NCBI GenBank assembly: GCA_030167865.1
Contig: JALAGF010001426.1
Location: 1-58,963 of the forward strand
Reading direction: 5' to 3'
Origin: Craspedostauros australis
Taxonomy: Eukaryota
Length of the DNA: 58,963 nt
Shown here: positions 1,798 to 25,221 of the stretch, piece after piece
Position numbering within the stretch: position 1 is the stretch's first letter
Layout of the letters: each line of letters opens with the position of its first letter
Made by a program: the position numbers and the translations under genes
Notes under the pieces: model-generated
The model's database searches: none
What the model was told of the DNA's origin: nothing
What the model saw: only the letters and a program-made list of their open reading frames with translations

Positions 1798-3807
1798 TTA
1801 AGAAAAGGACAGCTTCGTTCCGATAGCCCCCATGACGACGCCCAAAGCAGCGATGACCTTGCAGACCAAGCTCTCCTTGGTCGGCTTTTCTTGCTGCTTC
1901 AAGAACATGATGGCGGGGTAGACAAAGACCAAGGCAGTACCGAACGTGGCACCGCCGACGGACGCCACCAGGCCCAGATCGGTCAACTGGCTGGAAACCA
2001 CGGTGATGGCGGCCAGGAGACCCAGCGTGATTTTGTTGAGCAACCCGTTGGATCGCTTATCCTGCGGGACTCGGAACAGGTCCAGCACTCCATCGCGGGT
2101 GCCGACGAAAATGAGCGGGTAGGAGCAGGTGATGGAGACGGCCACCGCCACGCGGCTGAGGCTCATGAGCAGATCCTGCGTGGAGTAGTTGTTGAGGATG
2201 AGACCGTTGGATGCGGTGCCGAATGTGAGGAATCCCAGCGCTGTGATGATGCCGTACAGGCTGATGGAGGTGCCGAAGCTCCATGCGATGACCTGGTGGA
2301 AGCGGGACATGGTGTTGTCCTTGAGTTCGTTGAGGAATTTGGGGGCGTTGAAATGTGCGATGTAGGCGTTGGACAGCATGCACATGAGGATGAGGGACTT
2401 GGGCGAAAGGGCCGCCTTGGCGCCTGCTGTGCCGAACGTTGGTGTTGCCATGGCCGTGGAAACGAACTTGCCTCCAGGGACGGCGTACGCGCCGCCGAAG
2501 TAGCGGATGGCCATGGCGAGCGTCGTGTAGAGCATGCCGCAAATACCAACGAGCGAGAACGGCGCCAGCGAGGCCAGATTCTTCAACAGGCAGAGGGGGA
2601 GCAGCACGACGCCGGTGACACCGAGAAGGGACTGCGTGCGCGTGGCCGCGATGCCCAGGCTGGCAAGAAGGTTGACGAAGGTGTCCGCGAGGATCATGCT
2701 GTAGGAGATGTTTCCGGCAACGCAATCGATGAAGCAGGAGAATGCGATCAAGGCCGAAGATGACTTTCCGACAGTGGCATCCCACGCCTCGCTGTAGGAC
2801 TGCGTGTTCGTGTTCTGACAGACACGCCCGATGAGACCGAAGGTGTACGCAGAGATAGTGCCCATGATGGCGATCAGGATCATTGCGGGAATGATCGCCG
2901 ATGGTGCGTTGCCGAATGTAGCCAAACCTGTTATCGTTGGCGTCGTCATCGTTATCGTTGGCGTCGTTATCGTCATTTCATTCGTCGTGTCATTGCCGCA
3001 GTATCCCGTCGATATCAGTGTCAGCGTCAGTATCCGTTACATCATCGATGGCATTGCATGATACAATACAACAGCAGAGTTGTCAGTATTGGCACCGTGC
3101 CATTCATTATCGGTATGAAAGGGAGCATCATTGGTGTCGTGATCACCGCCATCACCATGATGAAGCAATGAATGGAACCATGCGACCAACCCAGACACGA
3201 GATGAGAAATCGGTCATCAAGGGATAGATGAATGAATGATTGAATGGAAAAGATGAAGAGTGTGGTGAGTTGATGGCAAGTAAAGACATTCGCACCATCG
3301 TGTGGTACCTACATACTCGTCCACATGTTGGCATAAGAACGTTCACACTTGTACAGTTGGACATACGTTCAAATATGCAGATGAACTTCTTCATTGTCCA
3401 GCGCTTGAGCGGAATACCGCGCAGATTCCATGCAGATTCAATGTCGATGCTGATTGAGAATGAGACGCGGACGAACCGCAACCAAAGCAGCAGAGCGACG
3501 CAAGTTGGAACGGAGCCTACGTACCTGCTGGAAGACTCAAGACACCCGCGCCCACGATGCTCTTGACCAAGTTGAAGACTTCGTTGGGGATCGTGGCCGT
3601 GCCACCTCCAGCATCACCGCCCCGAGGCATCTCTTCCGCAGCCGCAGACGCCGCATTGTTCAGAACGACAGATGCCGTTGCTGGCTTTCCGTGCTGGAAG
3701 ACCGTTGATGGCTTCGTTGCCACCGATGACGCGACCGGGGCGAGGAATGCAGCGGCCGAATCGCTGGCGATCAGGCAAATGAGAGCGAATGCCAACGTGA
3801 ATCTCAT
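1798..3807 (-). CDS. AAAP/Aa_trans (SLC38-like) amino-acid transporter, paralog 1, predicted plastid-targeted; 2 exons
   Basis: Exon 1 is 3807-3525 and exon 2 is 2927-1798. The GT..AG intron 3524-2928 (597 nt, phase 1) joins GVLSLPA-G-LATFGNAP in frame. Family motifs: FNLVKSIVGAGVLSLP, LLPLCLLKNLASLAPFS, AYIAHFNAPKF, SYPL, plus many TM segments. Leader MRFTLAFALICLIASDSAAA-FLAP. Confidence 0.92.
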
Positions 3808-3817
3808 GGTGCAGCGT

Positions 3818-3852
3818 TGGAGTGATTGGAGTGATTGGAGTGCTGGAGTATG
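3818..3852. repeat. Short 8-9 bp tandem repeat (TGGAGTGAT-like, about 4 copies) just upstream of the paralog 1 start codon
   Basis: Sequence reads tggagtgat tggagtgat tggagtgc tggagtat. Confidence 0.8.
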
Positions 3853-4647
3853 GGAGCGAGGAACGGGCCGATAGTATGGACTCTGATGCGATCAGGTGGC
3901 TTGGTGAGAGGAGACTTGTTCGGAAGCTTGTGACGATTGGTCTTTGTGTTCTCTCTCCAGAGAGAGGACTCTCTTTGTCGTTCTCCGTCAATCACCACAT
4001 GCGATGCCGAGAATGACAACACATCAAGAAGGGACGAACCACCTGAGGTGCGTCACGTGCGGCTTGGCCATCACCCACACGGTTGGATTGGAGCGATCCA
4101 ACCGCCCAACCTGCGCCAATCATTGGGTGCGAAGTGATGTGCCGATGTTGCTCGCGAAGAACAAAAGATTTGGCACCAAATTCTGGCCTGTCAATTGGAG
4201 CCTAAATGAGTACTTGAATCATGACAATAAGAACGTTGCTGCTTGATTCCACAGTTTGACATCTACCGTCCAATCACGATCTGTGATCATCGCTGTTGTG
4301 TTCCGTCACGTTACGCGGACAAGGGCAAACGAACGATGATGGCCACAAATGAAGGGCGCTCACCAAGTTTGTGTGGAGCAGCGCGATCGTATCCACACCA
4401 TCGTAGTTGTCACGAAAGATACCTCAACATGGCACAAAAAGCGCACAACAAAGACATCACCGCACACATCGATTGATCACATCCATCAAAAGACGGCAGA
4501 CGATCATTCCAATTATACTTTGCGTGGCAAGACAAAGGATACAGCAGAGAGCAAAGACCGATACACTTCTATTCAACTTCTATCCAAGTTCTATCCGACT
4601 TCGACCCAATCCCATCACACGAGTTGTCAGCTATCACACAATTGATC

Positions 4648-6891
4648 ATGAAGATTAAGCAACATGCCTTGACGTTGGCGCTGGTGTTGGCGACCGCGGA
4701 CGCTTTCGCCCCATCAGCCCGCACGGCCATGCCATTGAATGCGGCTGCCATCCGCACGCAATCCCCGTTCGTGGCTCTGCCCTCGCAACAACAGAACCAG
4801 CATGTGATGCCCACCAAATTGCGCATGTCCGATGCTGCCGTGGCGGTTGAAGCCCAGACCGAAGACGACTCCGAGGGCGCCACCGTGCCGCAGCTCATCT
4901 TCAACTTGATCAAGTGCATCGTGGGCGCCGGTGTCCTGAGTCTGCCGGCCGGAATCGCCGCGTTCGCGTCGGCGCCATCCGCGGTCGTCCCTGCCGTGGC
5001 GCTCATCACCGCCATCGGGGTGCTGTCCGGCTACGGCTTCGCCTTGATCGGCCGCTGCTGCGCATACACCGACTCCACGTCCTACCGCGAGGCATGGAGC
5101 AAGACCATTTCCGAACAGACGTCCTGGATCCCGGCCGTCGCCGTCACGTTCAAGACGTGCTGCGCCATCCTGGCCTACAGCATGATCCTCGGCGACACCT
5201 TCAAGTCCCTCCTGGCCACGGCCGGATTCGTGGGCCTCAGCAAGGCGACCGTCACGTGGACCCTCACCGGGACGGTCCTGCTGCCGCTCTGCCTCCTCAA
5301 GAACCTGGCGGCCCTCGCGCCGTTCTCCCTCGTGGGATCCCTCGGCATGATCTACACCGCCGTCGCCATGACGTTGCGCTACCTCAGCGGATCCTACATC
5401 GTTTCCTCCTCCAAGAAGGTCGCCTCTGGCAAATTCGCGGCGGACGTCGCACCGGCGTTGCAGCAATCCTTCGGCAACGTTGGCGCGAAGGGCATCTTGA
5501 CGCCAGCCGCAGCTATTCTGGTTGGTATGCTGTCCACTGCGTACATGTCGCATTTCAACGCACCGAAGGTACGCAAACAAACAAGCGACCATGCATGTTC
5601 ATGAATGAATAATCTGTGAATGATGGTATGAAACGCGTGTCAATCAATCAATGGTTGGATAAATGGATGGATGCAAGGTCAGATGAATGGGTCCATGGAT
5701 TTTGAAACATCAGTCCCACAATTGGTGGAAGTGGTAATATTTTCGACTGGCAGCTCTATTGCTATCATCGCATCATTCTGAAGTGGCCAAAGCCACATGC
5801 GAGTATTTGTGATGTGGGCGGCTGCGCGTCATACAATACAATATTCGTACTATGTCATGGCGTGATGGGATGGGATGCGATGCGATGCAAGGCCTCGTAC
5901 TTTATCCGTGCTCGGAGTTCCATGTTCTCACCACTTCCAATTTATTGACCACAACACCATTTACTCTATGCACCATTGCCTCCTGGCTTGAAATGTGCTC
6001 TATACCATCGGGATCACGATCATACTGACACGCAATGCTGTGTCATGTTTCCATGCTATCTGCATGAACTTACTCCACTTCAATCCCCTTGTCACGTGCG
6101 ATATGCCATACTGGTGACACTCCTGCTCTGATACTGTTTCGGGAATGGTAACACAATGCATGTTATTATCCATGCAAACCAATCAACAACCGTCGAATCT
6201 TGACGCTGAATTCCAATAAACAACGGCCTTACTATTGAAAATGATGGCGACGGCAACAATGGCCATGTCAATAACAACAACTGCAACGACGATGACGACG
6301 ACGACGACCTTGTGGATCATGCAGTTCTACAATGAGCTCAAGGAAAAAACGTTGCCAAACTACTACAAGGTCGTCGCCACATCTTTCGCCGCTTCCATCG
6401 GCATCTTCGCATGGGTGGCGGCCATCGGCTTCCTCACCTTTGGTGCGTCAGCCAACGGCCTCATTTTGAACAACTACTCCACCAAGGACTCGCTCATGGG
6501 ATTCTCGCGCATCGCGGTGGCCATCTCGTTGGTCTTCTCCTACCCGCTCTCTTTCGTGGGTGCGCGGGATGGCATCATCGATCTGGCCAAGCTCAAGGCC
6601 ACGCCCAAAACAGAGAACGCAATCACCCTCGGCGTGCTTGGGTTGGTGACGGTCGGATCACTGCTCATCCCCGACGTCAGCTTCGTGCTGGCCCTTGCCG
6701 GCGCCACGTTGGGTAATGCCCTCATCTACGTCTTCCCAGCACTCATGTTCCGCGGCGCCATTAAGCAGAAGGGCGCTGATGCTACCAGCAGGCAGAAGAA
6801 GGAGGTGAAATTCGCCTTGCTGTCTGCAGTCGCCGGCATTGCCATGGGCATTCTGGGAGCCACAAAGGCCATCCAAGGACTGGGCAATTGA
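4648..6891 (+). CDS. AAAP/Aa_trans amino-acid transporter, paralog 2, predicted plastid-targeted; 2 exons
   Basis: Exon 1 is 4648-5568 and exon 2 is 6325-6891. The GT..AG intron 5569-6324 (756 nt, phase 0) joins HFNAPK-FYNELK. Same motifs as paralog 1 (FNLIKCIVGAGVLSLPAG, LLPLCLLKNLAALAPFS). Leader MKIKQHALTLALVLATADA-FAPS followed by a transit peptide ending TKLRM. Confidence 0.92.
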
Positions 6892-7401
6892 ATGCTATCG
6901 CGCGGCCTTGGGTGATTTGGACGGAATTGGTAGAAGCCTCGTGGATGTCCCACTGTTCTGAGATCACGGATATCCCCAACGAAGCGTACCAGAGCGCACT
7001 AACAATGCATAAGCGCATTCCGCAACCAGAGAGCGAACGACAATTACTCTGCTCTGCTCTACTCGACGATAGGATTGTCACCGGTTGTGAGAAGCGATGA
7101 AGGGGACGATGAGCGGAGACATCTTCTCTGCCGTCCGCTATCTGCGAGACAGCGTCGCAGTGTTATCAAAGGTGCATGGCTCGTACGAGTAGTATACACC
7201 ACGATGATATGTATGCTCTACCCTTACATGCTACTTCTTGTCTGCGTACTATTGTAACCGCAATGAAGGTGAGCGGTTCCAGAAGCGAGAGGATCAGTGG
7301 TGGGTCATTGACTTGGCTCGGTCTGCTCCAACTTCGGCCGGAAGTGAACACCCGATTTGCGGTGGTAATGATCAAAGATCATTTGTGCTGGGACCTCTGC
7401 T

Positions 7402-7438
7402 GTCTCTCTCTCTCTTTGCAGAGAGAGAGAGAGAGAGT
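7402..7438. repeat. (CT)n..(AG)n inverted microsatellite, hairpin-capable
   Basis: Sequence reads tctctctctctctttgcagagagagagagagagag. Confidence 0.85.
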
Positions 7439-8461
7439 AGCTCGAACGAGTAGAAAGTATGTATGGTATGAGTAGTGCGCAGATTGTAGCATTTCCACTC
7501 TGGGCCTTCGCTGCTCGCGTGTACTCAGACTTGAGAGAGACAGCAGACGTCCCAGCACTCTCCGCCCTGGTTCAGAGGTATCGGGACTTACGCACAGTAC
7601 GAGCAGTCGGTCCCAAGGCAGGTTCGTCCTCTTTGCAGTATCTGCAGCGTGCTTGTAGCGCACTTGTAGCGCACTCAACAGGGGTTGCCTTGCAGGGCAA
7701 CCTTGCCGCCCACAACATGGCCAGATGTGCTCACACAAATCGCGATGAAGACATCGCATTCATCGACCGGCATTCACTGGTCATGTGTTCAGTGCTGGTG
7801 TGTGCGTGATACAGTGCCGCGGTACTCAGCGCGCCCAAACGTCGCCGAGTCATGGCATAACTCGTATGGCTCGAGCAGACCCTGGTAATGGAGCGTCCAC
7901 AGCCAAGGAAAAACCGGCACCATCGCGGTAACCGTAGCCTGCGCTTCAGCCAAGAGAACGATTCTTCCCAAAGAACAGATGGCTCCTGTGTGCGAGATTG
8001 GATCTCATGACCCGAAATGTGTTTGGCTGGTGTCAGCATGTTCGGAAGCTTGTAGTCGCACAAAGACTTCAACAGAACCTCTGAAAAGCAAGGAAAGGAA
8101 CATCACAAGGCACCCAGAGGAAGGTCTCCGTGTTGTGTTGTAGTGGATTTTGGCGGACATGTTAGTGGGGCGTGGGCATGTGTAAGATGTGACAGGAGAA
8201 CGAAGCTGAGTGGGGTTTGAGAAACAATGTGTCCACGCGCCACTCTTGGATGAGAACGATCTCCCTTGCTGTGTTGATTCTTAGCGCGAAGCCAAGGGGT
8301 TCTCTCTCTCTCTCTCTCTCTCTGGACCTGTCCACCTTCCCCGCGAGATGGAGATGGAAACGGTTGCTCATCACCATGGTCGTCTTCACATTCAGCAGCT
8401 GCGCGTACGACTAATCAAAGGACGGCACAGATCACGACCATCATTTCCATCCCCGTGGCGA

Positions 8462-8478
8462 GGGGGGGGGGGGGGGGG
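8462..8478 (+). repeat. G17 homopolymer
   Basis: 17 consecutive G residues. Confidence 0.9.
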
Positions 8479-9692
8479 AGGTGAGAGACAAACGCCCCAC
8501 TATATTCCTGAGAGCATAGGTCGTAGAGTTCGCACTCACGCAGCACCATACTCTGCTATTTCATCTTGATGACAAGCGTGTACTCCAGGAGGTAGAATAC
8601 CTGGGCCGCCATGTTCACGCCAACAGCATTCCTCTGTATCATTGAGAGATGAGCAAATAGGCATGAACCGCCTTCCTGTTCGTGATGGACAAACCATCCA
8701 TAATCTCCCTCGGTGATGGCGCACACGCGGCAGCAACATGCTCGCACGACTACATGGCCGTACTGCCATACTGCCGCACAGCACTGGGGAGGAGAAGTCG
8801 GAGGGAGTGACCCTCTTCCCCCTGTGCTGAGATCCATCTCTGACCTCTCTTGCGGGCTAAGCTCCTTCCGAACGAATGCATAGTGCATGATGCCAAGTGC
8901 TCGTTGGCCTTTGTTCTGGTTCAATGTTGGCGCAAACTTGTGCACTTTTCGTCAGATGGATTCGAAGTTGTTGATTCTTCCTTGCCAAACAGTGGCAATA
9001 TATTCATTAAAATGTCCATCACCAAAATCGACGAGTACTCACCGCTCTTGGAGACGTGTGGACATTTGACTTTCCATGCGCCGCGACAAAGGTGAGGGTA
9101 GCTTGTCTGTTCGTAGATGGAGCCGCGCGATCGCAATACGAATCGAGTTCGACCTATTCGTAGATATGGATGGGATGCTGTGGCTGGGTACAGGCCAGTG
9201 TGCGCACAGAGTTGCCACGAACACGAGTAGATTGTGGGCAGACGACGTGCAGTGCGTGGAGCTGTTGGGGAGTGACAGGGAGGAATCGAATGCCCGCGAT
9301 AAGAGTCAAAATCAACACCAAGACCAAAAGGATTTGCTCAGTGGTTCGCAATTGGGCCATGATGGTAGTTGACAGAAAAATCGTTGGACATTTCAAAACG
9401 CACGGGCAACAATGGATAAATTCTGCCGCGGCGTGCGAGACGACGGAGTTAGCCTCGATCAATTCCCTCCCATCAGAGTCTCTGCGACAGGAGCAAACCC
9501 TTTGGTGGTGGTCTTGTAAACAAGTTGTCGCAGGCAAGGACTCTACGAGTAGTCGTACAAGTATGTGCTGAGATAAGTATGCATTGGAAAGTATGACGCC
9601 AAGCGTTGCCTTGCAACGGGCTTCGCCGCTTCGACATGGCGCGAAGAGGAGAAGCCTGTTTCTGTGGAATGACCAATCTGACGATCGAGATA

Positions 9693-9758
9693 CGATTAGA
9701 ATACGACAAGGCGCTGAACGGACACACAGGATGCGCGCTCAATTGGAACGCCAATGGC
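9693..9758 (+). pseudogene. Possible decayed WD40 (DCAF/WDTC1-like first repeat) fragment
   Basis: Translates RLEYDKALNGHTGCALNWNANG, resembling the RL..L.GH.GCVN.L.WN..G start of DCAF-type WD40 proteins with two residues missing. There is no continuation. Confidence 0.3.
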
Positions 9759-12700
9759 ATAACTGCTCCGGTGGGCAGGGAGCACACTTGCAGACACTTG
9801 AGTGTCACTCTGTTCGCAGAGAGATGCGGCAGCACACCTTCCAAGTCTTGTCTGAACAAGAATGCAGGCAACCCCCGGGAGATTCGAGATCGGATTGCCA
9901 TCAACGATACGAATGTTCGTGATAAACTTCAGACAAAGGGAGAGAGAGAGAGAGAGATGGGGCGAACGCAGACTACGAATATATATTGAATGTTCTCTGC
10001 GGTCCAAGACTAGACTCAAGCGTTCCAATGCATTCTTCTGACCATGCTCACCGCCAAAGCGAGCTTCACTGAAATAGTCTGGAGATGTGCGCAGACATGA
10101 TCCTCGAATGAATACCGGCACGGTGACCCTTGAAGTGGGAGACAGATCATGACCGGTCTGGTGGCAGTGGGAATGAGGATAGTGAAACTCAAGGCAGCAC
10201 CGCTGATCCCAAGGGCGACGGCGATGGCATACTGCCGTTTGCATCTCAGCCTATCAACAGTTCTGTCCGGTCAATTCATCATCCCAGATCGCTTCCGGTG
10301 CCGGTTTTCGTGAACACGGGCCATGAGTGGTACTTCTCGCTTAGGCAAGCACGATCTGAAGCCAAGAAGCCGAATCAGCGAAGCATAATACTATATAGTC
10401 GATCGTACATGCTGCGAGAAATACACGCACAGAGCTCTGTCCTTCTCCACATCGCCTCCTTGGACCATGGTCATCTTTGCGCAACCTTCCATCTGCGAGT
10501 CGAACACTCTGCGCAGCTGTCCGGAGAGGTTCGCTGTTCATTTGTTTCGTCGTTGCGTGCTCTGTGTGCAGTTGCCACTCCGTCAAGATCTTTACTTTGG
10601 TTGGAGTAGCTCGTACTCTGCTCTGCTCTGCACGCTGCTCTGCAATCTACTCTGCAATCTACTCTGTGCGGCAACGCCGCCTGCGCAGTTGAGAGTCCGC
10701 GCGGGAGCTGCGAAGCTCTGGTGGACGCGCGCAATTTTGTGACAAGGTCAGCTCAGAATCGCATGAGACGCGCAGCAACCATGGAGAACACTCAACAAAT
10801 GTTCGGGTTGTTCTCCCTTTCTCCAAGTTATTTATGCGACGCTTCGAATTGGGGTTCGACACGTCTGCTGTGATGTACAACTGCTACGAATAGACGGTAC
10901 TAATTTTGGAACGGCGTTATAAAATTCTTCCACAATCTGGCAGCAATAGTCTCAAAAAGACATGAAATGGGTCCCGGTTTCTCGCCAGGCACTTCGGCGG
11001 ACTTTTTGGACTGTGTTGACACATCACGGGGCTGTTGTATTTGCGCCTTTGGTTCACTTCACCGCTCTTTGCTTGGCTCCCGCATGTGACCTTCTGTTGT
11101 TCCTTTTCTCGAGATGAGCGAAGGCTGGTGGTTGGAGTCTATGGTTGAAGTTGCAACTTTTCTCTGTCGGAAGCGTTTGGCGCCTCCGCGATGGGGTTGC
11201 AACTGCATTGTACGAGCCATTTGCGTCCGGAATGGCTGATGGTTGTCATGGGGTACCGCGAACATTTCTTACATCACATGCAGGGGTCCGGATACACACG
11301 TGCATGATACCACCTATGGTATAATACATGCTGACTGCGCTATGTCATCACTGCGAGCATTACCACGACTTTCGAAATCGCCACCAAGCCCTGCAACGAA
11401 CGACGCGTATCAATTTGATGGGATTGACCGTTGCCATCGCGTTGGGCTGCACCGACGGAGATCATCTCACAAAGTTCTTTTCATCAACGCAAGTAACGCG
11501 CAGGAGTGTGGACAACAGGCGTGGCTGACCACCTCGCTGCCTGGTGATCGGAAACCAGGACCAAGACAGAGAGTGGTGACATGCTCGGGCCATGGGGGAC
11601 AACCGGTTCTCTATCCATATCAACGAAAATGCGCGCCGAACCAGAAGGTGCCTCTTGGTCTGCTCGTATTTGTGCCCAACCTGTCTGTAGAGTAAAAATG
11701 GAAGTCAAAGTCGCAGTCGAAGTCGAAGTCAAAGGCCAAGAGGAGACAAGACAGACGAATGATACCGGCAAGGATCAATAGTCTAGTTTGTGCAGACATA
11801 CACTTATAGTCGTAGGGGAGGACACAACCGACATGTTTGGATCGTATCATCTGGAACCACCACAGCTGGATGAACGAGCGGCAATTATGCGTGCCATGTC
11901 AACAGTCAGTAGTGATCGAGCCGCATCGGATGACGAGAACCCTGTATGGACGACGTGGCACAATTGCGATCTATACCTTGCACACGCACGAATCAGCATG
12001 TGGAGTCGTCGCGGAGCACCCGTACACGCAGTACTTGTACTCGTAGAATGCCAATAGAACAAAGCAGAGGAGGGCGAGTCCAGCACCAATGAATCGGTGG
12101 CTGATGCCTACGTGTATGCATGTGTACGTAATGCAGGAGTAGTCTTGAAAGATGGCGGAGTACGCGCAAAGCAAACCATGATTACCAGGCTGGGCACGCC
12201 AAACTTGATCGAGGAAGCATCAACGATCACAGAAGAGAGAACAAAACACACCCGTCCGAGAATAAATGATGCGCCAAGTGCGAGTGTCAAGAGAGGCAAG
12301 ATGCCACCGAAGACAAAATAGGAACAGGAATGACGGTTCTATCCTCCCTCGCTTTTGTTGCGCTAATGTCTTGAGTAGAGTATTGCCAAGGCAACAGCAT
12401 CAAAGTTTGTGCTGACACTCGTTGATGCAGCATCGTTCAACGACGACGGTATTCGTGCTTATGTCTGCGAGAGCAGAGGAGCTAATTGCACTGTACGAGT
12501 ACGAGTTGGCGTCCGAACCAACTTACACACCCGTAGAGTAGCTCGTACTGCGCCAAGACCTGGTTTGAGGAGCGGATTGGATTTGGGCGCCACCTCTCAG
12601 GACTTGAGGACATGTTGGTACGCGCTTGGAAATGTGAATCTGTATGGCACGCTCGGACCGGTTGGGCGGCGCCACACGCCACAACACAGCACAACGCAAC

Positions 12701-13746: not shown

Positions 13747-16584
13747 ATGCTCCCAACAATGCCATCGGCAGGCGACAACGCGACCAGTGTCAGGCAAGCA
13801 CAAATTCAAACGATGCGCTCCATCGTCACCGTGATGGAGGAGGAGGAGACCTTGGCATTCCGGCATGCATGTGAACAAAACCCTGACCTTGACGACGACC
13901 CGTCGGTCTGGACCAAGTTCCTACAAGTAGAGGCATTTCAACCAGGTCTGGCAGCGCACAGGATGACGCACTACTTCAAGACTGCCTATTTCATGTTTCA
14001 CATCAACACAGGAGAGGCCGGAACTTCACCCGGCTGGCCCATCATAGTGTCAGACCTGTCGGAGAGGCAACAGGAAATCCTCTGCAGTGGTCAGATCCAG
14101 TTGCTCCCTGAGCCCGACGCTGCCGGCCGAAGGGTGGTCTTTCTTCGTGATACCATCCAACAGCAACACTTGCGGCAGCAGCAGCATCGAGAGATTGCCA
14201 ACGATATGGTGAGTTCCAACGCGTCGATCGAGATAACAGCTGCGCAGCCAAAGAGCGGTGTTGCGCTTTGTCCTTGTATCTGGAGCGTCATATTATTTTA
14301 CATGGCACGCTCCCAGCATCCCGTTGGCATGGTCGGGAACGACAGAGGCTGAGAGAGAAACACATCAGGTCACTCGAAGGATCCCTCGTATCTTACATGC
14401 AAAGACGCGAGTATTTGTGCTTGCGCATTGCTTTGTGTGGTTATGATACTGCTCAGCATCTCTACATCTCGGCATGGTGGTCAGTTTACAATCGCTGTCG
14501 GCACATTTCTCACATCGATCGCAACAAATGACCTGCCTACCCTCAATGATATCTCACGCACACACGATCGTACGCACGCCTACGCCGACACACCAGCTGC
14601 TGGCCATGGTGTACTTCATGGACAATTTGAGTCGATCGTCCGAGGTTCAACAAGTGGGAATCGTTCTTGTTCGACACTACACAGGTGTCCCTTTCAGCTC
14701 CGTCAACTTCGATCTGATACGACGATTTGAGACGTTCATGAGATTTGCTGCACCCGTGAGGCTTCATCACGAGCACGTGCTGTACACCGACCGCGCCTTT
14801 GAAACATCGTGCATCCCACATCTACAAGCCATCCATTCGGAACGGTTCAGATCATCCTCTCTGAGTTGCCACTACGATCGAATGCTAGACGGAAGTCCCC
14901 TGCTTCGGCATGGGATCAACCCATCGAACTTTCCTCTGCTACCTAATCGCCAAATCAGACTGGACTCTCATGTGCAATGGGTGCAACAGAGCGTCACGGT
15001 TGATGCAGTACTTCGATCGCAACGCCAAGAACGATTGCAGAGTGGTCACCATCGTCGCCTACCATACGAACATCAGCGCCAGCACTCAATGCCAATGCAA
15101 CCACCGCACCGCCGACTGCATCACCAACAAGACGGCCACGTCGATGGAACAAACGTGATCAAGAACACGACCCCGATGGCATCTCATTTGCCAGGACCAT
15201 CTCCACGGGTAGCGTCTGGGGTATCTGGTAGAGCTGATGTTCGGATTGAACCAAGCAGCACCCATCGAATGTTTCCTCCCCTCCATGGCCAGATCACCGA
15301 GGACCAAGACAATGCGATTCAGACATCGTCTCCTTCATCGATAGGAGCATCCAGCGCACGGCGTTCTCGCAAGCTTCAGCTGCCTCAACATTCTCTATCA
15401 TCGCCGCCAGAGTCCCTCCCCGTCGTGTTGTATCAGAAGGAAGATGAACTCACATTATCGAGGTACCAGTGCCTGCTGCGGCAGCAGATTCAAGTCTTCG
15501 AGGCCACTGACGAAGATGTCCAGTTCAACGCATCGCGAATGCATCGGACAATCCGGGTGGGACAGATCGGTTTGAGGTGCTTTCATTGCGTTGAACAATC
15601 TCCGAACAAGCCTCCAGGGGCTGTCTACTATCCAGGTGAGAGATGCGTGGCTCGATGAAAGATCCCTGCTTGCAATGTATATTCCTACGTGTGTGCCGAT
15701 CATACCCAATCATTGCGCCTGGAGGAGCGCTCTCGGGACTATGATGGTGACATTCAAGCGGGTTCGTCATGTTTTGTTTTCCCAATCACCATCTGCGATC
15801 GGGATTTGGGCATAATCACAGATCTGACCATTTGGCGAAGCGGGCAAGGGCAAGGGCAAAGGTCAGATTGTGGTGCATCTCACCTTTCATCCTGTGGAGA
15901 CCGTTGGGAGAAGCATGGTGGGAGCGCGCTCTGTCTAACCGTGGCCTCATCCTCACCGCATCGTGGCAACATCTTCTGCCCTGCTCGATGAACTATGCAC
16001 GGTCCTTGCTTGCACCTGCTCTACGCCAACCATGCAATTGCGACTGATCTGAATGGCTTTCCACAATGGATGCACTGATTCCTTCATCTTCATCTAACCC
16101 CACTTGCAACAACCAAATATGCATTTGCATGTTCATTCCGTTCCATCCCATTGCTTCACTTCAATGTACCATCGTTGAATGCCCAACGTGGGATGCTGGT
16201 ACCATACAACACTGCGCTGACTGGTCTCACGATGCTGTTCGCCAATTGCTTCAATTCACAGGGTGCCTGGACATGTTCTATCAGGCTGCACAGAACCTCG
16301 CCAAGAATCACATCTGCAAGAGCTGCAAGCAAATCCCGAAAGAGAAAAAGGAACGCCTGAAGACCCTTAGACAAGACAAGAAGAGGGCAACTTCTGGCAA
16401 GGCCTATTGGAGAGCCATGGCGATAAGGATGAGCATTTTCGAGAAGGAGGAAGCTTTGTGGTTTGGCTCACATCGTGGTACTGGTGTGGTGGGGAAAGAT
16501 TCCAGCAACACGGCCTCACCTCCAGGGAACGAAGGAGCAGGAGCGACAGCAACAGTTGCAGCTGCAGCAATGGACGAAGGATGA
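13747..16584 (+). CDS. CRAL-TRIO/Sec14-like domain fused to a C-terminal diatom-type Cys/His (putative Zn-binding) domain; 3 exons
   Basis: Exons are 13747-14208, 14597-15635 and 16262-16584, with introns GTGAGT..CAG (388 nt) and GTGAGA..CAG (626 nt). Joins read IANDM-LLAMVYF and AVYYP-G-CLDMFYQAAQNL. The N-terminal half has KFLQVEAFQPGLAAHRMTHYF, QLLPEPDAAGRRVV, EVQQVGIV and PVRLHHEH. The C-terminal half has LSRYQCLLRQQIQVFEA..GQIGLRCFHC..GAVYYP..YQAAQNLAKNHI..C..IP..GKAYW. Confidence 0.85.
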
Positions 16585-19500
16585 TGGATGAGAGATGGAG
16601 CCTGAAGCCCTGCCAGTATTTGTCTGTACATAAAAAACTGGATTCTCCGACGGGCACTCCGCGCGCACGTGCCATTACTAATACGATATACTTCAGCTCA
16701 CACTGCTCGTATCGCGGATGGGATGGACGATTGTTTCTGAACATGGTGCTCGTGCCGTGTGTGTACTATACATTATGTGCGCTTGGCAAGTATCATGTGT
16801 CTTCCTTGCAACAGTTCTCACTGGGAGGAATATGCGCACAAGTACTGACATGTACCTCGTGCGGAGAAGGTAGAATAGAAAGCGCCAAGCCAACACACGT
16901 TCCAACTGTGCATAGAACAGGGGAACAATGCGTGCGAGCAACTACCTCAAGATGGAGTAAGTGCTCCACATAAGCTAGTGCACCGAAATGTGAGAAACGG
17001 TGAAGCCTCGCAACTTGAGGAACAACAAGTGTACATTTATGGTTTCGGACGATGCCAGCGCATTGAAGAACCGCTGAGGTGCACCAAAACCAAAGCGGAC
17101 ATTTTGGTCCAATTTGTTGGACCATTGTTCTGGCAATCCCATTCTCCTTTCTGACCAGCAACGGAGAAGGCGTGGTTTTGGTTGTTGCAGCCTGAGCCAC
17201 TGGCTGGCACAAGTATAAAGGGCACATTCGCCAGGACGTGCAACGCAAGACCATCGAACTATCTCAAGGTCTCCTTGAGCAACGCATTCTTCTTTCGTTT
17301 CTCACAAGATGGGGATGCTCCCCTGTCGAAGAGGTCTGTTGGATGAATGCTGTTCCTTTCGTTTCTTTGATCCATGTGTTGGCGACACGCGCTTGTTTGC
17401 CTCTGGAGGCTCCACCAATGCGATGCCCAGAGTACATACTATTATGAGCCGTGGCACCAGTAGCTCGTATTCAAATAGACAGTCGCGGATGCGGACCGAA
17501 CCATCCAAAGATGTAGGATTCGGTGCGCGTTGTGGCCGGTGAGAAAAAGAACACAATGAGCAGAAACCACACGTCAAAACAAAGCAGTACCGATGCGCGT
17601 GTGGAGAGGATGTACTTTACAGGCACCGACACGTACCAAAGTCTTCCTCGTCTGCTTTGGTTGGCACGAGGTGAGAAACGAGAGGTGAGAGGTGGCAATG
17701 CACCGCGGGCGGAAGCCTCGAGAAAGCTCACACAGGTTGCGCGAGCAAAGCAAGGAGGTTGCAGGTAGGGTACAACCTCGTCACACATGCATCGATGTTG
17801 CCGTACGCAACGGCATTTCAATACTCTCCAGACAAGCTCGTATACATGCGAGTACACCCAAAGGTAGTCGTTGGTGAGGAACTCTTTGGGCTCTTTTTGC
17901 GGTGCAGAATGCTTTGCTCCTTGCTTCTTGCGAAGACCTTGTCCAGATGTTGGTTGAATGCTGATCTTTTGGCCATCTCTGATTCGGCAACAGGATGCGG
18001 TTCATGCACGAAAGAAGATCACGGAACCCTTCTGTCCACATGCTACATGCTAGTGGGTCGATTGCTGCACAGAGCGAAAGGCAACAGCAACAGCAACAGC
18101 CACCTCCTACTCTCGACACCAACATGTCCATCATGTCTTGCGGTACCCCGTGCGCAGTTTGCGTTCGCTCGTTGTTCAGAGGTTCCGTTGATACCATCTT
18201 CGTCAACCTCCAGTCAATACACACAATACCATACGAGCTGTTCGTACGATACCACAAGTGCATGTATGGGTATGGTTGTTCGCGACATTGTGTGCGGGGC
18301 GGGATTTGATTGATACATGGCGGAGTCTCAGTAGGTATGGTGAGTTGGTCAGTCACATCTCCTGACGATCTCTGGAGTACCTGTACGGATGGTTGTACTT
18401 GGGGGACACTCTCATGACTACCGATGATGCAATTCCGTCCAACCAACAGGGACATACCACGGGCCACGCCAGCTACCGCTTGTTGGATTTGGCAGACAAT
18501 CCTCTTTGGGTGATAGCCGAAGCGTCTCTACTCGTATCTCTGCCGTCGGCATACCTGCCATACATCAATATGATCAACACGCCGTCATCTTGGAACATGC
18601 TCGTCAAGCGTGAACAGGAGACATGGCATGTGTGTGCGTTGCGCTGTGTATCCATAGCTGGGAGTGCGTAGCTGCCTGCTGGGAAATGCAAGCACCTCGA
18701 CAAGCAGGGTTGTTATTCAATATTTGGCTTCAACTTGCCCCTCATCTCCGAGAATGACCGCCTCTTGGCCAGTAAATCTCTGTTTGCATACCTCTCTGGA
18801 GGTGTAGCTCGGCCGGGCACGTGGATGTCAGACAGGCGGGTCCATCGACTGATCGACTGATGGTTCATCTTTACCAACGGCATGCTTTCGCTGTGTGTGT
18901 ATTTCTGTTCAGCGCTATTATATCTATTCTACTTCTTAGTTGCGCGGTGCAACGATCGCGGCATTCATCATGATGTCGCCGATTCACTTCGATTTGGAGC
19001 ACGATTTAAGCATCGCAAGCAAGATCAAAGCCTCTCCTTCCCAATCGTCCAATGGCCTGCAACTGACGACACCATGGCGACGACGACTGAATTTCCCAAT
19101 GCAATCAGGTGGAGGCGAAGGCAGAAGTGAAGAAGTGGCTTCGGAGGGGTAAGTCTGCAACCCGTCCTTATCACAGAAAGCGGCGAGGTGTCGGAGTGGC
19201 TCCTGGCGCAAGCTCGGCTCTCTAATCGTAACTCGCCATCTCTCACATTTTGCCAGTACTACTAAGGCGCCTGAAGAACAGCAGCCATGAAAGTTCGCGA
19301 ACGTAGTACGACTAGGTTGAGTGCGAAATCGCATTGCACAGACATATTATATTATACTCGTATTCCACTTGCACCTCTGTTCTCCAAGACCATCGCGACG
19401 CACCTGGAGGAACGAGCGAGACTCTCTGGAGAGCGTATTTTGTATCTCCTCGTATTTCCGTACTTGCGCAATGTTCGTGTTCATCCAGTGTAACGGGATG

Positions 19501-20212
19501 GAGATGTCGAAGCACCACAAGGGTGTCCAACAATAGAATACAATATAATATAATAGATCGTACTCTACCGCCGGCACGTACCAAAACCTCGCCGTGGATA
19601 TTTCCGTGGATTCCTAGGCCTCTCGAACGACCTGCAAGTGCTTCGTAGTCTATGGTCCATTTCATCTTGTGCACTCTGATCGTGCTTCTGTCGCGCAGCA
19701 TCAACCTGCCCGGACAGCGCCATTTCCGGGTCTTCCCAAGGAGACAGGCGACCTGGCGCTTTCTCTCTGTGAGGCAGGTTGGCGCTATTGGCATATGACC
19801 CATGCGACTACTTGAATCGGTTTGACCACATTGACTTGAATGGGTGGACAAAATTAGTCTCTTTGTTCGAACGAAATGAATCTTCGATGAATGTCCGCTT
19901 GTTTTTTCGCCCATCACCAGCCACAGAAAAATGGCATTCCTCTGCACTGACGTTCCGTCAAAGAACCAACATGCAAGCGCATGAACCACCAACAACCACC
20001 AACAACAACACTGCTCGGAACTTCAGCACGAAAGAGAAGAATCCGGTCGAGGACTAAATACTCTGCTCGATCGGCACCAGCTCCACCAATACCTAGCCGT
20101 ACACAGTTGTGAGTTGTTGGCGATCAATCGAGAACAAATCTTGCCCAAGTAGTTTCATCTTCCCCTCTGTGCCCCCCATTGTCCTCTCCGCGCCATCTCG
20201 CATCGCATCAAC

Positions 20213-20758
20213 ATGAAGTCCATTTCCGCATTCGTTCTCACCATCGCCATCTCGTTCGCTTCCCTTCTGACCACAGAAGCCTGGGTTTCACCATCCGTTC
20301 AGCAAGCATCATCAGCGACCATGCTCAGCAGCCGATTTGCGCGAAGTAGCCGAACCCTGTACAACGCCGCATCCCGCCTTTCCATGTCACGCAAGGCCGG
20401 TGTCTCCGAACCCGAAGAGCTGCGTGCCTTCGTGCAGGAAGCCGGAGACAAGCTGCTCGTCGTGGACGTGCGCAACCCAGATGCCAGCGTCGAACCGGGC
20501 GATCAGAAGAGCCTGGCCGTCGCCGCCCTGCCAGGCGATGGCGTTCGCCCGCAGGCGCAGCATCTGATCTGGCAACGCGAGACCGACAGCATGCCGCTGC
20601 CGGATGTCGCCAAGGACACGCCCATCATCACCCACTGCGGTGGCGGCGGTCGCGGCCAGAAGGCCAAGGACTACCTGACGAGCAACGGATTCACGAAGGT
20701 GCTGAACGGAGGCGGTCCAAAGGAGACCGACTGCTGGGATGAGTTTGGATCCAAATAG
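20213..20758 (+). CDS. Single-domain rhodanese-like sulfurtransferase, predicted plastid-targeted
   Basis: LVVDVR motif, active-site loop THCGGGGRG, and C-terminal GFTKVLNGGG. Leader ..LTTEA-WVSP plus a Ser/Arg-rich transit peptide. Strong codon bias. Confidence 0.88.
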   Translation: MKSISAFVLTIAISFASLLTTEAWVSPSVQQASSATMLSSRFARSSRTLYNAASRLSMSRKAGVSEPEELRAFVQEAGDKLLVVDVRNPDASVEPGDQKSLAVAALPGDGVRPQAQHLIWQRETDSMPLPDVAKDTPIITHCGGGGRGQKAKDYLTSNGFTKVLNGGGPKETDCWDEFGSK

Positions 20759-21932
20759 AGGATTCGAAGAGACTCGAGCATGACACTCTCCAGTTGGGAA
20801 TGCCACATTCGTTGGTCGGCAGCATCATCTTGACCGAGATCAGATTTCAGGACACGCTACAGGCGCCCGTCATCTTAGCTTCACATTAGCGCCTTTCTTC
20901 TGGGCCAACAAGCCGCCGACGAAGTACGAATCTACCCACATATTATACAATATTCGAGTAGAGCGATAGTATTCCGTATACCAAATCTTCCTCAAACTCG
21001 AATGCTACACCCGTCGTCCTGTTGCATGTTGTCTCGGTCGCAACTTCGACAAAGAACTGAAGGTACTGGAATGGTGGACCATCTGGGTCGCCTCCAGCAT
21101 GACACGAATGTGATGCAACCTCCAGATTCGCAAGCAATCAGCCTTCTTGATCGTCTCTCTCTCTCTCACTAGTATTGCTGTGTGTATGCTGACGCAGTGA
21201 TGGACACAGCTTCCGTTTCATGCACTTGCACCACTGTCATTGCACTCTCGCGTACAAAATCAAAAAGAACTGCCACGAAAGATTCTCTCATCGATGATCA
21301 TACCTCGGCTCCCCCAGACTCTCCCGCCACCCTCGCCAACGATTCAACACGTTCGAGAATCTCTCTCTCTCTCTCTCCAGAGAGAGATCAACACAATACG
21401 AGTATGCATGCAAGGATGAAAAGAAGCAATCAATGAGAGAGGAAGAGTTACTGGCTCAGCCTGCAGTTCCGGATGTGCCTCTTGGCGCCAAAACAGGCAA
21501 TGCGTGATTTGTTGACTATCGATTCCCGTTTGACGCAAACTTCGATGGTCGCATGATGTGATCGCATGATTCGAATGGAAGCCAAACCACGAACGAAGCG
21601 AATACCAGGATGTCTTCGGACGATGACCGTTTCGATCCGTTGGATTGTTGTTCACGTTGACAGGCCATCATGCTCGTCTGGAAATGACGCGACCACGTGC
21701 TGTTGTCAGCCTCTTGGTGCTGTCACCAGCGCCTTCCCATCGTCCACATCCATTGCAGCACCACCAAGTTCAAGAACCATTGTGGTTGCCACCAAACTCC
21801 ATCCGGATACAACACCGTACAACACAGTACAACACACCACACCACAGCACAGCGCGGCATCCGAGGAGCTTTTGATACGACTGCTGCCAATCGACCAACA
21901 ATCGAACAAGAAACAGCAACGAAACGGACCCG

Positions 21933-23107
21933 ATGCCACCTCAACGCAACGCGCGCCTTCTGCTGGCCACCCTGGCCTGCATCTTTGCGTTCGTCGTCAA
22001 TGACCGCATCCCATCGTGCGCAGCGCAGGAATGCAGCGCCAAAGATCCCTCCGTGTGCGACACGCACGAACGATGCCCCGTGTGGAAGTCGGAGGGAGAA
22101 TGCCTGCGCAACCGCAAGTACATGAAGGAGTACTGCCCGGTGTCGTGCGCCGACGAACTCAAGGCCTCGTCCAGCACCGTTGAGGACTCCGACTGCCAAG
22201 ACAAGCACCCCAGCTGTCAGGAATGGGCGCAGCAAGGCGAATGCGACTCCAACGGGGATATGCACATCTTCTGCAGAAAGAGTTGCAACGTCTGCGAAAG
22301 CTCGTGTCGCGACAACCACCCAAGCTGTTCTGGTTGGCGTGCGAGTGGCGAGTGCGAGGCCAATCCGCGGGTAAGCGTCATGCGCATTGATCGTATATGT
22401 GATGGCCCTGGTGTACGAGTGTGTACCATGATATGCTCTTCTGCGCTGTCATCATCGCTGAATGTTTGATCCAGATGTTTGAATTGATCACATCGCAACG
22501 TCATTCTCTTCCCCCCTGTGCTCGATGCAATAATATGTAACAAAATATGTACTCTATCCTGTACCCTACACACCAACATCTCACGTCGTTTTCAATACCT
22601 GATCTGGATTGTGTGGGGAAATGGCGCGCTCATGCAACCATCATGATTCCATGCCCCGTGCATCACCTAACTCTTGTCACCCACTCAATCCATGCACTCA
22701 ATCTATGCACTCATTCATTCGTTCATTCATTCATCCGTTCGTTGATGGTACCAATACAGTGGATGAACGAGAATTGCGCCAAGAGTTGCGGCAAATGCGT
22801 CGTTGAGGAGAAGAAGACGGATGAGACAGCCGCAGAGACCTACGCCGAGACGGAGAAATTCGGCATGTTGCAGATTGCCGACGGTTCCACCATCGAAGAG
22901 GTGGCGAAGCAGATTCGGAAATCCATCACGTACATGAAGACGGTCGACATGGATGACACAACGCGTGCGCGATGCAAGAACGAGCACGCCCTCTGCTCGT
23001 TCTGGGCCACCGTCGGAGAATGCGACAGCAACGAGAGATGGATGCAAAAGAACTGCGGTCCGGCTTGCAGAAGTTGCCACATGGTGACGGACTGGGACGC
23101 GCTGTAG
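21933..23107 (+). CDS. Secreted protein with four ShKT (ShK toxin-like) domains; 2 exons
   Basis: Exon 1 is 21933-22370 and exon 2 is 22760-23107. The intron GTAAGC..CAG (22371-22759, 389 nt) joins GECEANPR-WMNENCAKSCGKC. Four C..W...GEC..N..M...C..SC..C units follow an N-terminal hydrophobic signal. Confidence 0.88.
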
Positions 23108-23501
23108 CGCGAGAACGATGCGGCAGTGCAATCAGTGAGCGAGGCATCGCAACACGTGAGGGTTGAAGTCTGGAAGTTCGTACTCGCACGATGGCAGCGT
23201 TGCAGAATATCGATCTGCCGTGGCTACAGCCAACATTTGCGAGGAGTCCGAAGCTCGACTTCACGCTACTCCAGAATACATACAAGTAGAATAGTTTGCA
23301 CATGTTCAGATTGATGGATTGGGGTGTGATTCAGCATCTGCGTCATTGTGAGGCGTGCATAAAGTAGAGCATGTACACATACCCGTCGAGCGCAGCCTTC
23401 AACTGTGCTGTCCAAATAGTGTGATATGTCTAACTTAGGTAGAGTACATGGTGGTAGCATACTTCGAGTCGCATGTTGAATAGCTGCACGGTGTGTCGCG
23501 C

Positions 23502-25221
23502 TTATGCCTTCAAGCTCTTGATGGCCATGTTGGCTCCGATGACGCCCATAACAATTCCGAGGACGCACGATCCCATGGCGACGTTGACACCCATCTGCTC
23601 TTCCTTCCTGCCCTGCAGCTGCACGACGGCGCGGTACATGAGGGCCGGGTAGACGTAGGTCAAGGCGTTTCCGAGCGTGGCGCCTCCGAAGGCCAGGACG
23701 AAGCTGACATCCTTGAGGATGACGGCCAATCCGGTGAGGACGGCCAGCAGACCGACGGTCATGATGTTGAGCTTGGTGGTGGTGCGTTCGGCCTTTGGAA
23801 GCTGCATGAGGTCGAGGAATCCATCGCGGCAGCCGGTGAATGCGAGCGGGTAGGAGAAGACCAGGCTGACGGCCACGGCGATGCGGGAACCGGCCATCCA
23901 GGCATCGGATGTGGCGTAGTTGTTTAGGACGAGTCCGTCGCATGCCTTTCCGAAGGTGAGGAATCCGACCATGGTGATGAAGCCCATGAGGAAGATGGAG
24001 ACACCGAAACTCCAAGACACGACGCTGTGGAAACGTGGGAGGGTGTTGTCCTTCAGCTCCAGGTAGAACTTGGGCGCGTTGAAGTGGGCCTGCGAATTAG
24101 ATCAATTTGTCGTCGATTGATTGATCGATTGATCGATTCATTGCGCGAATAATGTTTGCGTTTGGATTCCAAGTTGTGTTGGGTCGCATAATATTTGGCA
24201 TGATCAGACAAAGCAAGTATAACGAGTGGTGAGGTCAGGTGGGGTGAAATGAAATGAGATGGATCAAGACAGCACAAAAACCACACGAAGAAGATGACAG
24301 AGTGCTCTCCTCTGTGCTCTCTCTAGAGAGAGAGAAGCTTCGACGCCGACGTACCATGAATGCGGTCGAAAGCATGCAGACGAGAATGAGGGCCGATGGG
24401 GAGAGAACCGACGCCATTCCCTTCTTGCCGAACTTGGGTCGCAAATTGGCAGAGACTTGCGAGAGCAACCCCGATGCGCCAAAGTCGCCGCCCAATCCCT
24501 GACCGTAGGAACCGTCCAACCATCGCACGGTCATGGCGACGGCAGTGTACGCCATTCCGAGGACTCCGAGGAGGGAGAAGGGAGCGAGGGACTTGAGGTT
24601 CTTCATGAGGCAGAGCGGAAGCAGGAGGGCGCCCGTGATGGCGAGCAGGGTGGGCGTGCGCGAGGACTGGAAGAGGGCCGAGAACGTGTCGGCCAGCACC
24701 ATGGAGAAGGCGAGGCAGGCCAGGAAGGTCTTGCAGGTGGTGGAGATGGCCGGGATCCAGGACGACTTCTCTCCCACGGTCTTGGACCAGGCCTCGCGGT
24801 AGCTGCTGGCGCCGGTGTAGGCGCAGACCTTTCCGATGAGGGCAAAGCCGTATCCGCTGAGGATACCGATGACGGTGATGAGGGCAATGGCCGGGATGAT
24901 GGCATCCGGAGCATCACCGAAGGCGGCGACGCCTGCTGGCAAGGACAGAACGCCGACACCGACGATGCCCTTGACGAGGTTGAAGACGTGGCTCGGGATG
25001 GATGCGCCATCGGGATTGAGCTCCGCTGGCTTCACCGCAGCTGGCTTGACTGTCTCGGCGCGCTTGAAACCGCTGAAACCGACAGGCACCTTGACGGCAA
25101 GTCCGCGGCTTGGGCCGGTCACTGTGGTTGGCTTCGCAGCAGGGGCGGCGCTGCACGAGATGGCCAGCACGGCCATCAACAGCACCGACACGATCATGCG
25201 TCGCTGATGGAACTTCGACAT
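23502..25221 (-). CDS. AAAP/Aa_trans amino-acid transporter, paralog 3, signal peptide without aromatic +1 residue; 2 exons
   Basis: Exon 1 is 25221-24355 and exon 2 is 24089-23502. The intron GTACGT..CAG (24354-24090, 265 nt, phase 0) joins STAFM-AHFNAPKFYLELKDN. Motifs FNLVKGIVGVGVLSLPAG, LLPLCLMKNLKSLAPFS and FSYPL. Leader ..VLLMAVLAISCSA-APAAKP. Confidence 0.92.

Follow-up and report, generated by a model that had tools for sequence, protein, structure and literature searches.

A conserved cluster of three AAAP transporter paralogues with two classes of targeting leader in the diatom Craspedostauros australis

Do linked transporter paralogues with differing targeting leaders pass amino acids across successive membranes of the diatom plastid? 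The question is raised by a 58,963-nucleotide stretch of DNA from the diatom Craspedostauros australis (assembly GCA_030167865.1, contig JALAGF010001426.1; the whole stretch is called the window below), in which three homologous genes of the AAAP amino-acid transporter family, here g1, g2 and g3, lie within 24 kb and each encode an N-terminal leader. A sequence-only reading had proposed that three kinds of leader place the three proteins in series across the four plastid membranes. We find that the cluster is real and conserved and that the leaders point to two classes rather than three, so that the relay survives only in a two-tier form, which is unproven for g3. A 2018 review describes amino-acid transport across chloroplast envelopes as known only very poorly and, for Arabidopsis, names DiT2.1 as the sole carrier to have been characterised (PMC5948301).

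The gene cluster, its orthogroups and their leaders

The spliced open reading frames of all three genes are intact, each with one GT-AG intron whose position differs from gene to gene. The 470-residue g1 is encoded on the reverse strand (3807-3525 and 2927-1798): its first exon (3525-3807) supplies a signal peptide (residues 1-20), Phe at +1, a transit peptide and the first transmembrane helix (TM1), and, beyond a phase 1 intron of 597 bp (2928-3524) inferred from frame and homology, the second exon (1798-2927) covers the AAAP core from TM2 to TM11, with the stop codon at 1798-1800. Head-to-head with it on the forward strand is g2 (495 residues; 4648-5568 and 6325-6891), whose first exon encodes a signal peptide (residues 1-19), the ADA-FAP motif, a transit peptide running to TKLRM (residue 60) and TM1-TM6, and whose second, after a phase 0 intron of 756 bp (5569-6324), encodes TM7-TM11 and the stop codon. 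The 840-bp spacer between the two start codons (3808-4647) is a putative shared promoter region. On the reverse strand 17 kb further along lies g3 (484 residues; 25221-24355 and 24089-23502), with a signal peptide (residue 1 to 24-26), Ala or Pro at +1, a basic transit-like stretch to about residue 70 and TM1-TM6 in exon 1 (24355-25221), a phase 0 intron of 265 bp (24090-24354), and the end of TM6 through TM11 with the stop codon in exon 2 (23502-24089). Contigs of the sequencing run X1, which we guess to be RNA, cover 6404-7233 and 22759-23791 within the searched interval 5301-25300 and contain no joint across the g2 or g3 intron. Eight short tandem-repeat arrays occur in positions 1-27000, none of them inside the coding regions of the three genes.

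The homology claimed for the trio holds: pairwise identities are 46.2, 49.8 and 50.7%, there are 10-11 hydropathy peaks per protein (the counts for g1 and g3 including the leader), and PF01490 (Aa_trans) is the sole Pfam match in all five exon pieces scanned, with 57.8-118.7 bits against a cut-off of 25.6 (E = 3e-34 for g1 exon 2). At least 11 AAAP loci are present in this genome (14 matches from 17 candidates), and finding three of 11 inside 24 kb has P of about 7e-5 if loci are uniformly placed; the clustering nevertheless needs no special cause, because local duplication explains it trivially. To our knowledge, animal and yeast AAAP members are without cleavable leaders. The sequence-only reading had set the leaders against typical SLC38/AAAP proteins, which lack them; they are indeed present on all three, but signal-peptide-like N-termini also occur, by eye, in three of the eight other AAAP loci of this genome and are missing from five, so leaders are not peculiar to this cluster. 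Separately, we observed more distant AAAP genes with signal-peptide-like starts at L009:1066-2673, L016 and L017 (G000:C5890, C6047 and C5545, respectively); the proteins of C5890 and C6047 have Asn instead of Lys in TM1 and LRGG or LRAG in the leader, while that of C5545 resembles Phaeodactylum J45969 by eye.

That reading had also said beforehand that orthologues should fall into three orthogroups which keep their leader class and their linkage, and this was borne out. Three protein searches gave 1030, 935 and 970 matches, and the lists of the best 120 from each share no entries. Trees were built with FastTree from the TM1-TM6 core (313 of 373 rows, the remainder being without that stretch; its re-rooted support values were left unused) and as a quick IQ-TREE analysis of 71 hand-picked rows with SH-aLRT as the only support measure. 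The quick tree gives SH-aLRT 99 for each of the orthogroups OG1, OG2 and OG3, which contain g1, g2 and g3, respectively, and 100 for a larger clade that joins OG1 to centric relatives, while it leaves open the branching among OG2, OG3 and the centric proteins with a Lys in TM3 (see below). In this tree the proteins of the window take a pennate-diatom position. In Seminavis robusta the orthologues Sro719_g192320, g192340 and g192370 follow the order OG3-OG2-OG1, the same as here, and in Pseudo-nitzschia multiseries the names of all three orthologue models bear 248, which we read as the scaffold. As a proxy for linkage more widely, we looked for equal-sized contigs of at least 4 kb across the three match lists (46, 42 and 48 contigs, some of them maybe near-duplicates): 11, 7 and 6 are common to the list pairs, against control means of 0.11-0.13 and a control maximum of 2, and the partners on such contigs show the expected best match. 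L015 carries OG1 and OG3 in tandem with no OG2 between them, and therefore the linkage is kept while the order is not fixed. These comparisons indicate that the three genes represent three conserved orthogroups and that the cluster recurs in other pennate diatoms. Among deeper relatives (the best 150 of 3635 matches) two of ten checked are ochrophyte (a pelagophyte and Phaeothamnion); a metagenome scan yielded 231 pattern matches and one confirmed locus.

Two further sets of relatives deserve mention. A well-supported clade near the three orthogroups (P0369, P0376, P0380 and P0415) has mostly non-aromatic leaders, some with RGG, and could be another outer-membrane paralogue. A fourth close paralogue in this genome (L002:1033-2625, reverse strand; G000:C2929) is 54% identical to g1 exon 2, intronless and has Asp in TM3; its N-terminus is rich in Thr, Met and Gln and has no signal peptide, while its closest relatives have Phe-type leaders, making a loss of plastid targeting possible. 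We considered this leaderless protein as a member of the chloroplast endoplasmic reticulum (cER) membrane and did not adopt it, given those relatives and its long branch.

The leader motifs themselves stand as first described. In g1 the leader reads SAAA-FLAP and ends in MPRGG, with AAA-F at the predicted cleavage site and PRGG at residues 61-64 (3616-3627, reverse strand); in g2 it runs from ADA-FAP to TKLRM; in g3 it is hydrophobic, ends ISCSA/APAAK and has no aromatic residue near the cleavage region. Cleavage sites were placed by eye and, across the orthogroups, by a home-made heuristic combining the -1/-3 positions with hydrophobicity and blind to +1, rather than by SignalP or ASAFind. 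Among leaders of at least 45 residues it called a signal peptide in 54/61 OG1, 77/84 OG2 and 101/112 OG3 proteins. By this heuristic, F, W, Y or L occurs within two residues of the called site in 44 of 54 OG1 and 67 of 77 OG2 leaders as opposed to 14 of 101 in OG3; counting the blind site exactly, the figures are 34/54, 37/77 and 7/101, and with one vote per 80%-identity cluster 16/20, 22/24 and 4/29. According to the ASAFind 2 paper, plastid proteins are marked by F, Y, W or L at +1 and a start free of acids, and proteins of the periplastid compartment (PPC) by the lack of these. Acidic residues within the first 15 positions are found in 7/54 OG1, 2/77 OG2 and 67/101 OG3 leaders, and in 64 of the 101 OG3 leaders a residue from +1 to +3 is charged. 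Hence g1 and g2 fit the ASAFAP-type precursor (signal peptide, F/W/Y/L at +1, acid-poor transit peptide), and g3 does not; the signal peptide, the non-aromatic +1 and the transit-like stretch of g3 are traits of PPC or periplastid-membrane (PPM) proteins, the early acids being seen in its orthologues only, and by such traits PPC proteins cannot be told apart from other secretory ones. Since Leu at +1 counts as plastid-class just as Phe does, and only OG3 differs, the leader sequences speak for two classes, g1 and g2 having the plastid-type +1 and g3 lacking it.

The proposal of three plastid membranes in series for the same amino acids (e.g. g2 in the inner envelope, g1 in the outer envelope or PPM and g3 in the cER) could draw on the conserved linkage and on a conserved difference between the leaders of the first two orthogroups: OG1 mostly has Leu at +1 with RGG (46/54 leaders), while OG2 prefers Phe and nearly always does without RGG (1/77). 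However, g1 itself, unlike most of OG1, has Phe, and RGG is no marker of a third membrane because it is shared by OG1, OG3 (15/20 and 16/29 of the 80% clusters, respectively) and the Phaeodactylum triose-phosphate translocator PtTPT4b, which has an ASA-F...PRGG leader and lies in the inner envelope. Thus, neither the PRGG leader as a distinct route nor RGG as a third targeting class could be upheld; among the papers listed by a literature search for an RGG motif in connection with diatom plastids, one, on Toxoplasma, used the phrase. The opposite TM3 charges and the dissimilar expression of the Phaeodactylum relatives described below also count against a three-membrane series, which we consider improbable.

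A second alternative arises from the leader of g3, which is basic and acid-free in its first 15 positions: all three proteins could be parallel inner-envelope carriers of differing specificity, with g3 imported despite its non-canonical +1. ASAFind does miss some plastid proteins (recall 0.72-0.89), 14 of 101 OG3 leaders have the F/W/Y/L site and each orthogroup has a separate pocket signature; yet the early acids and the charged +1 to +3 residues that prevail in OG3 are atypical of stromal leaders, and we give this arrangement little credence. Two peculiarities of OG3 leaders may be recorded here: about half are long (about 120-180 residues, e.g. P0127, P0151 and P0363), and 42 of 111 contain a conserved PKKSW-like motif that is missing from g3 of the window.

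Substrate pocket and expression of relatives

The nearest solved relatives by profile are human PAT1/SLC36A1 (PDB 9V3T; E = 3e-10) and zebrafish SLC38A9 (6C08; E = 6e-4), while a single-sequence search of solved structures returned no match. The diatom proteins resemble PAT1 in a TM1 Lys-x-x-x-Gly-x-Gly motif, in which G86 and G88 are invariant (285/285), and in the TM3 Tyr of OG1 and OG2; they differ from it in having cleavable leaders, a charged residue at the position of T150, Ile at that of N60 and no TM6 acid: g1 positions 274-290, where one like PAT1 E270, the proposed proton site, was sought, show neither Asp nor Glu as a frequent residue. Lacking both this glutamate and the TM1 N60, they were not assigned to the proton-coupled SLC36/PAT subfamily. 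The TM1 Asn of SLC38, which we take to be the sodium-site residue, is replaced by Lys in 285/285 proteins where SLC38A9 has Asn, and the sodium-coupled SLC38 subfamily was likewise set aside, 'sodium-coupled' in database names being automatic. With neither motif set complete, sodium or proton coupling could not be read from TM1 and TM6.

A predicted pocket position in TM3 divides the orthogroups in another way than the leaders do. At PAT1 T150, one turn below the pocket residue F154, Asp is found in all 65 OG1 proteins, whereas Lys is found in 92/100 of OG2 and 118/120 of OG3. In the window the residue is Asp162 of g1 (2725-2727, reverse strand), and its counterparts are the Lys of g2 (5152-5154, forward) and of g3 (24730-24732, reverse). 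At F154 itself OG1 has Gly as against Ala in OG2 and OG3, and 10 of 16 group-specific core columns set OG1 apart from the other two. Both the Asp-type and the Lys-type are present in centric diatoms.

A cargo other than protein amino acids (e.g. 5-aminolevulinate, a compatible solute or an organic acid), at whichever membrane, might be suggested by the promiscuity of PAT1, by the low identity to characterised carriers evident in the searches above, and by the loss of N60 and the TM6 acid. As the TM1 GxG break and, in OG1 and OG2, the TM3 Tyr are retained, and relatives are co-expressed with genes of amino-acid synthesis, we regard this as very improbable.

In Phaeodactylum, J49985 is the g1 orthologue in OG1 (75% identity over exon 2), and J50071 is Lys-type with OG2-like residues, as judged by eye from a printed supplement row; their identifiers are 86 apart, which is a distance between identifiers and not a linkage result. 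We take J12902 (K00366), which is mentioned below, to be nitrite reductase, a label different from that in the source table. Both transporters, together with J45969, are listed as predicted plastid amino-acid transporters in Table S2 of PMC9546453, where J49985 and J50071 are in silico ASAFind-chloroplast 'amino acid transporter' entries with an empty column for experimental localisation; the main text, in the parts consulted, names neither of the two, and those parts describe no non-ASAFAP partner, gene cluster or pocket difference. These calls, along with the plastid-type leaders of g1 and g2 orthologues, support the plastid association proposed at the outset.

Expression sets the two apart. 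They fall in different co-expression modules (J49985 blue, J50071 magenta). In parts 64 and 67 of 81 of Table S3 of the same paper, J50071 correlates with plastid glutamine synthetase (GS; 0.75/0.80), GOGAT (0.76) and aspartate aminotransferase (0.74), and also with pyruvate carboxylase and J12902 (labelled sulfite reductase there), while for J49985 the correlated genes are those of branched-chain, Calvin-cycle and pigment pathways (PMC9546453). Moreover, J50071 is among 61 highly nitrate-sensitive genes, and J49985 is not nitrate-specific (-0.43, -0.17 and -0.33; PMC6779911). Flux modelling in that study has aspartate and ornithine leaving the plastid on nitrate, with little direct transport of Gln or Glu; its 19 'amino acid transporter' rows belong to other genes (PMC6779911). 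The opposite TM3 residues, the different modules and the different nitrate response are compatible with carriers working in parallel, of which no more than g2 and g3 would act in series. The idea of three different targeting classes acting in series did not hold up, g1 and g2 sharing one ASAFAP class.

A proposed two-lane arrangement and the case against it

We therefore favour, at a rough probability of 0.45, an arrangement of two lanes, in which g1 and g2 would work in parallel in the inner envelope on different substrates, while g3 would extend the lane of g2 at the periplastid membrane or the cER. In this arrangement the three are LeuT-fold carriers of the four-membrane plastid rather than parts of one three-step relay. 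Guided by their ASAFAP leaders, the g1 and g2 precursors would travel through three membranes (cER, periplastid and outer envelope) and come to lie in the inner envelope, their N-termini facing the stroma. The most likely cargo of g2, with its TM3 Lys, would be an acidic amino acid formed when the plastid assimilates nitrate (aspartate or glutamate); that of g1, with its TM3 Asp and a Gly at the pocket floor, would be other amino acids made in the plastid (branched-chain, Lys or ornithine). As a Lys-type paralogue that has lost the aromatic +1, g3 would be retained nearer the cytosol, with the periplastid membrane as the likeliest site and the cER as second choice, and would hand on the g2 substrate; the outer envelope is taken as porous. 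What we observe are the gene structures, the family, the orthogroups, their conserved leader classes, the linkage and the pocket residues; we infer the membranes, the substrates, the direction and the g2-g3 series, and a plastid site for g1 and g2 stands on much firmer ground than any role of g3.

Membrane topology bears on how far g3 travels. Counts of Lys plus Arg place the N-terminal side 'inside' in all three proteins (13:3, 14:7 and 15:8, with approximate helix limits), which appears to fit poorly with plain insertion into the endoplasmic reticulum (ER) behind a cleaved signal peptide. Since a cleaved signal peptide followed by TM1 would invert the topology in the ER, import of g3 beyond the ER seems favoured.

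Several observations weigh against the two-lane arrangement, and most of them concern g3. A non-aromatic +1 does not identify a PPC protein, because ASAFind 2 predicts only 81 PPC proteins against 734 other secretory proteins in Phaeodactylum, with a PPC recall of 0.25, and g3 of the window has neither RGG nor an acidic residue in its first 15 positions. An extra hydrophobic segment rich in Gly, Ala and Val precedes TM1 in 53/111 OG3 proteins (1/61 in OG1 and 4/84 in OG2; not in g3 of the window), and with it such OG3 members would regain a normal topology, whether in the cER or in membranes of the secretory pathway. The TM3 Tyr equivalent to PAT1 Y158, which binds the substrate carboxylate, is kept in 62/65 OG1 and 100/100 OG2 proteins but is Phe in 97/120 of OG3, where Val also occupies the position of PAT1 T63 in all 120; since the Y158F variant of PAT1 shows poor substrate binding, a different substrate or weak activity is possible for g3. 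The residues common to OG2 and OG3 may reflect descent only, and the TM3 register was anchored on Y158 and LADxF, the TM1-TM5 alignment to PAT1 being weak (12.5 bits). OG3 was not recognised in Phaeodactylum or centric diatoms among the best 120 of 935 matches, and the literature searched yielded no OG3 expression data. On the side of g1 and g2, the +1 residue of OG1 is mostly Leu, not Phe (25 against 7 of 54), and the correlates of J50071 include enzymes for branched-chain amino acids (0.51-0.84) and lysine (0.53-0.77) as well (PMC9546453), so that they do not single out one substrate. Finally, we found no localisation or transport assay of any member and no description of the cluster in literature that mostly excluded subscription journals, so that absence from print is not established.

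In view of these points g3 may be non-plastid. The corresponding alternative keeps g1 and g2 as parallel inner-envelope carriers, makes g3 an ordinary secretory carrier of the ER, vacuole or plasma membrane, and treats the cluster as a relic of tandem duplication without any relay. In its favour are the OG3-specific pocket changes, the extra hydrophobic segment, the preponderance of non-PPC proteins among those with a signal peptide and no ASAFAP motif, and the variable gene order and orientation exemplified by the tandem on L015. Against it, g3 of the window and 58 of the 111 OG3 leaders are without the extra segment, so the topological objection applies to them; the Lys-type centric relatives inspected have Phe-type leaders, and therefore g3 seems descended from a plastid protein; and the linkage is retained between Seminavis and Pseudo-nitzschia. 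We hold a secretory g3 to be unlikely, though a serious contender.

Neighbouring genes and known systems

Several neighbours of the cluster are worth noting. A rhodanese-domain gene (20213-20758, forward strand) has a plastid-type leader (TEA-W); a contig of the putative RNA run X1 skips 20109-20276 (GT..AG), which removes the signal-peptide start, and the next in-frame ATG, at 20321, opens an Arg/Ser-rich stretch resembling a mitochondrial presequence, so dual targeting to plastid and mitochondrion by alternative splicing is possible. Convergent with g3 is a two-exon gene (21933-23107, forward) whose product starts like a signal peptide and contains several ShK-like cysteine domains; from its second exon the X1 contig 22759-23791 extends into the coding end of g3. 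Elsewhere in the window there are two CREG beta-barrel genes in tandem (30300-31821, reverse) and, on the forward strand, two probable multi-exon regulatory-type genes (13660-16584, whose pieces match no Pfam family, and 55289-56983, with a DUF6824 match), an EF-hand/DUF7874 protein with a signal-peptide-like start (26077-26886), a 2'-5' RNA-ligase-like protein (27669-29828) and a ClpP protease exon (50656-51567).

The closest parallel to the proposed arrangement is the set of diatom plastid triose-phosphate translocators TPT1, TPT2, TPT4a and TPT4b. Their membranes have been shown with green fluorescent protein (GFP), with split-GFP placing PtTPT4b in the inner envelope; the two ASAFAP carriers TPT4a and TPT4b occupy the inner envelope, and the non-ASAFAP TPT2, with Asp at +1, the periplastid membrane (PMC5635587, PMC6981301). 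The trio is like this set in comprising paralogues with differing leaders, two ASAFAP and one non-ASAFAP, and the TPT4b leader ends in PRGG as that of g1 does. It is unlike it in fold and substrate, in that the membranes here are predicted only, and in that no cER counterpart of TPT1 was identified in the cluster. A TPT-like relay would call for paralogues in the cER, PPM and inner envelope with a common substrate; in the trio we see only two leader classes and a TM3 Lys common to g2 and g3 but not g1, and identified no cER member. A word search found no statement on the linkage of the TPT genes.

In function, the proposed export of plastid-assimilated nitrogen has a likeness in plants, where the glutamate/malate exchanger DiT2.1 and PRAT proteins are discussed (PMC5948301); the families are unrelated. 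In diatoms the cooperation of DiT1 and DiT2 has been doubted, as the DIT1 homologue is without a targeting signal (PMC12645085). A bolder reading, tentative and in our estimate rather unlikely to hold in full, is that in pennate diatoms the conserved cluster would be the missing exit route for nitrogen assimilated in the plastid, made up of a nitrate-induced, Lys-type inner-envelope carrier of Asp or Glu (g2), its retargeted copy at the periplastid membrane or the cER (g3), and, for ornithine, lysine or branched-chain amino acids, a carrier of the Asp type (g1). AAAP proteins would then stand in place of the plant DiT carriers, with one TM3 charge switch setting specificity. The TPT precedent for such a layout and the earlier listing of two members among predicted plastid transporters limit the surprise; the cluster does, however, put forward candidate genes by name, each with a predicted membrane, and one residue for mutation, so that this step of diatom nitrogen metabolism becomes directly testable in Phaeodactylum or Seminavis.

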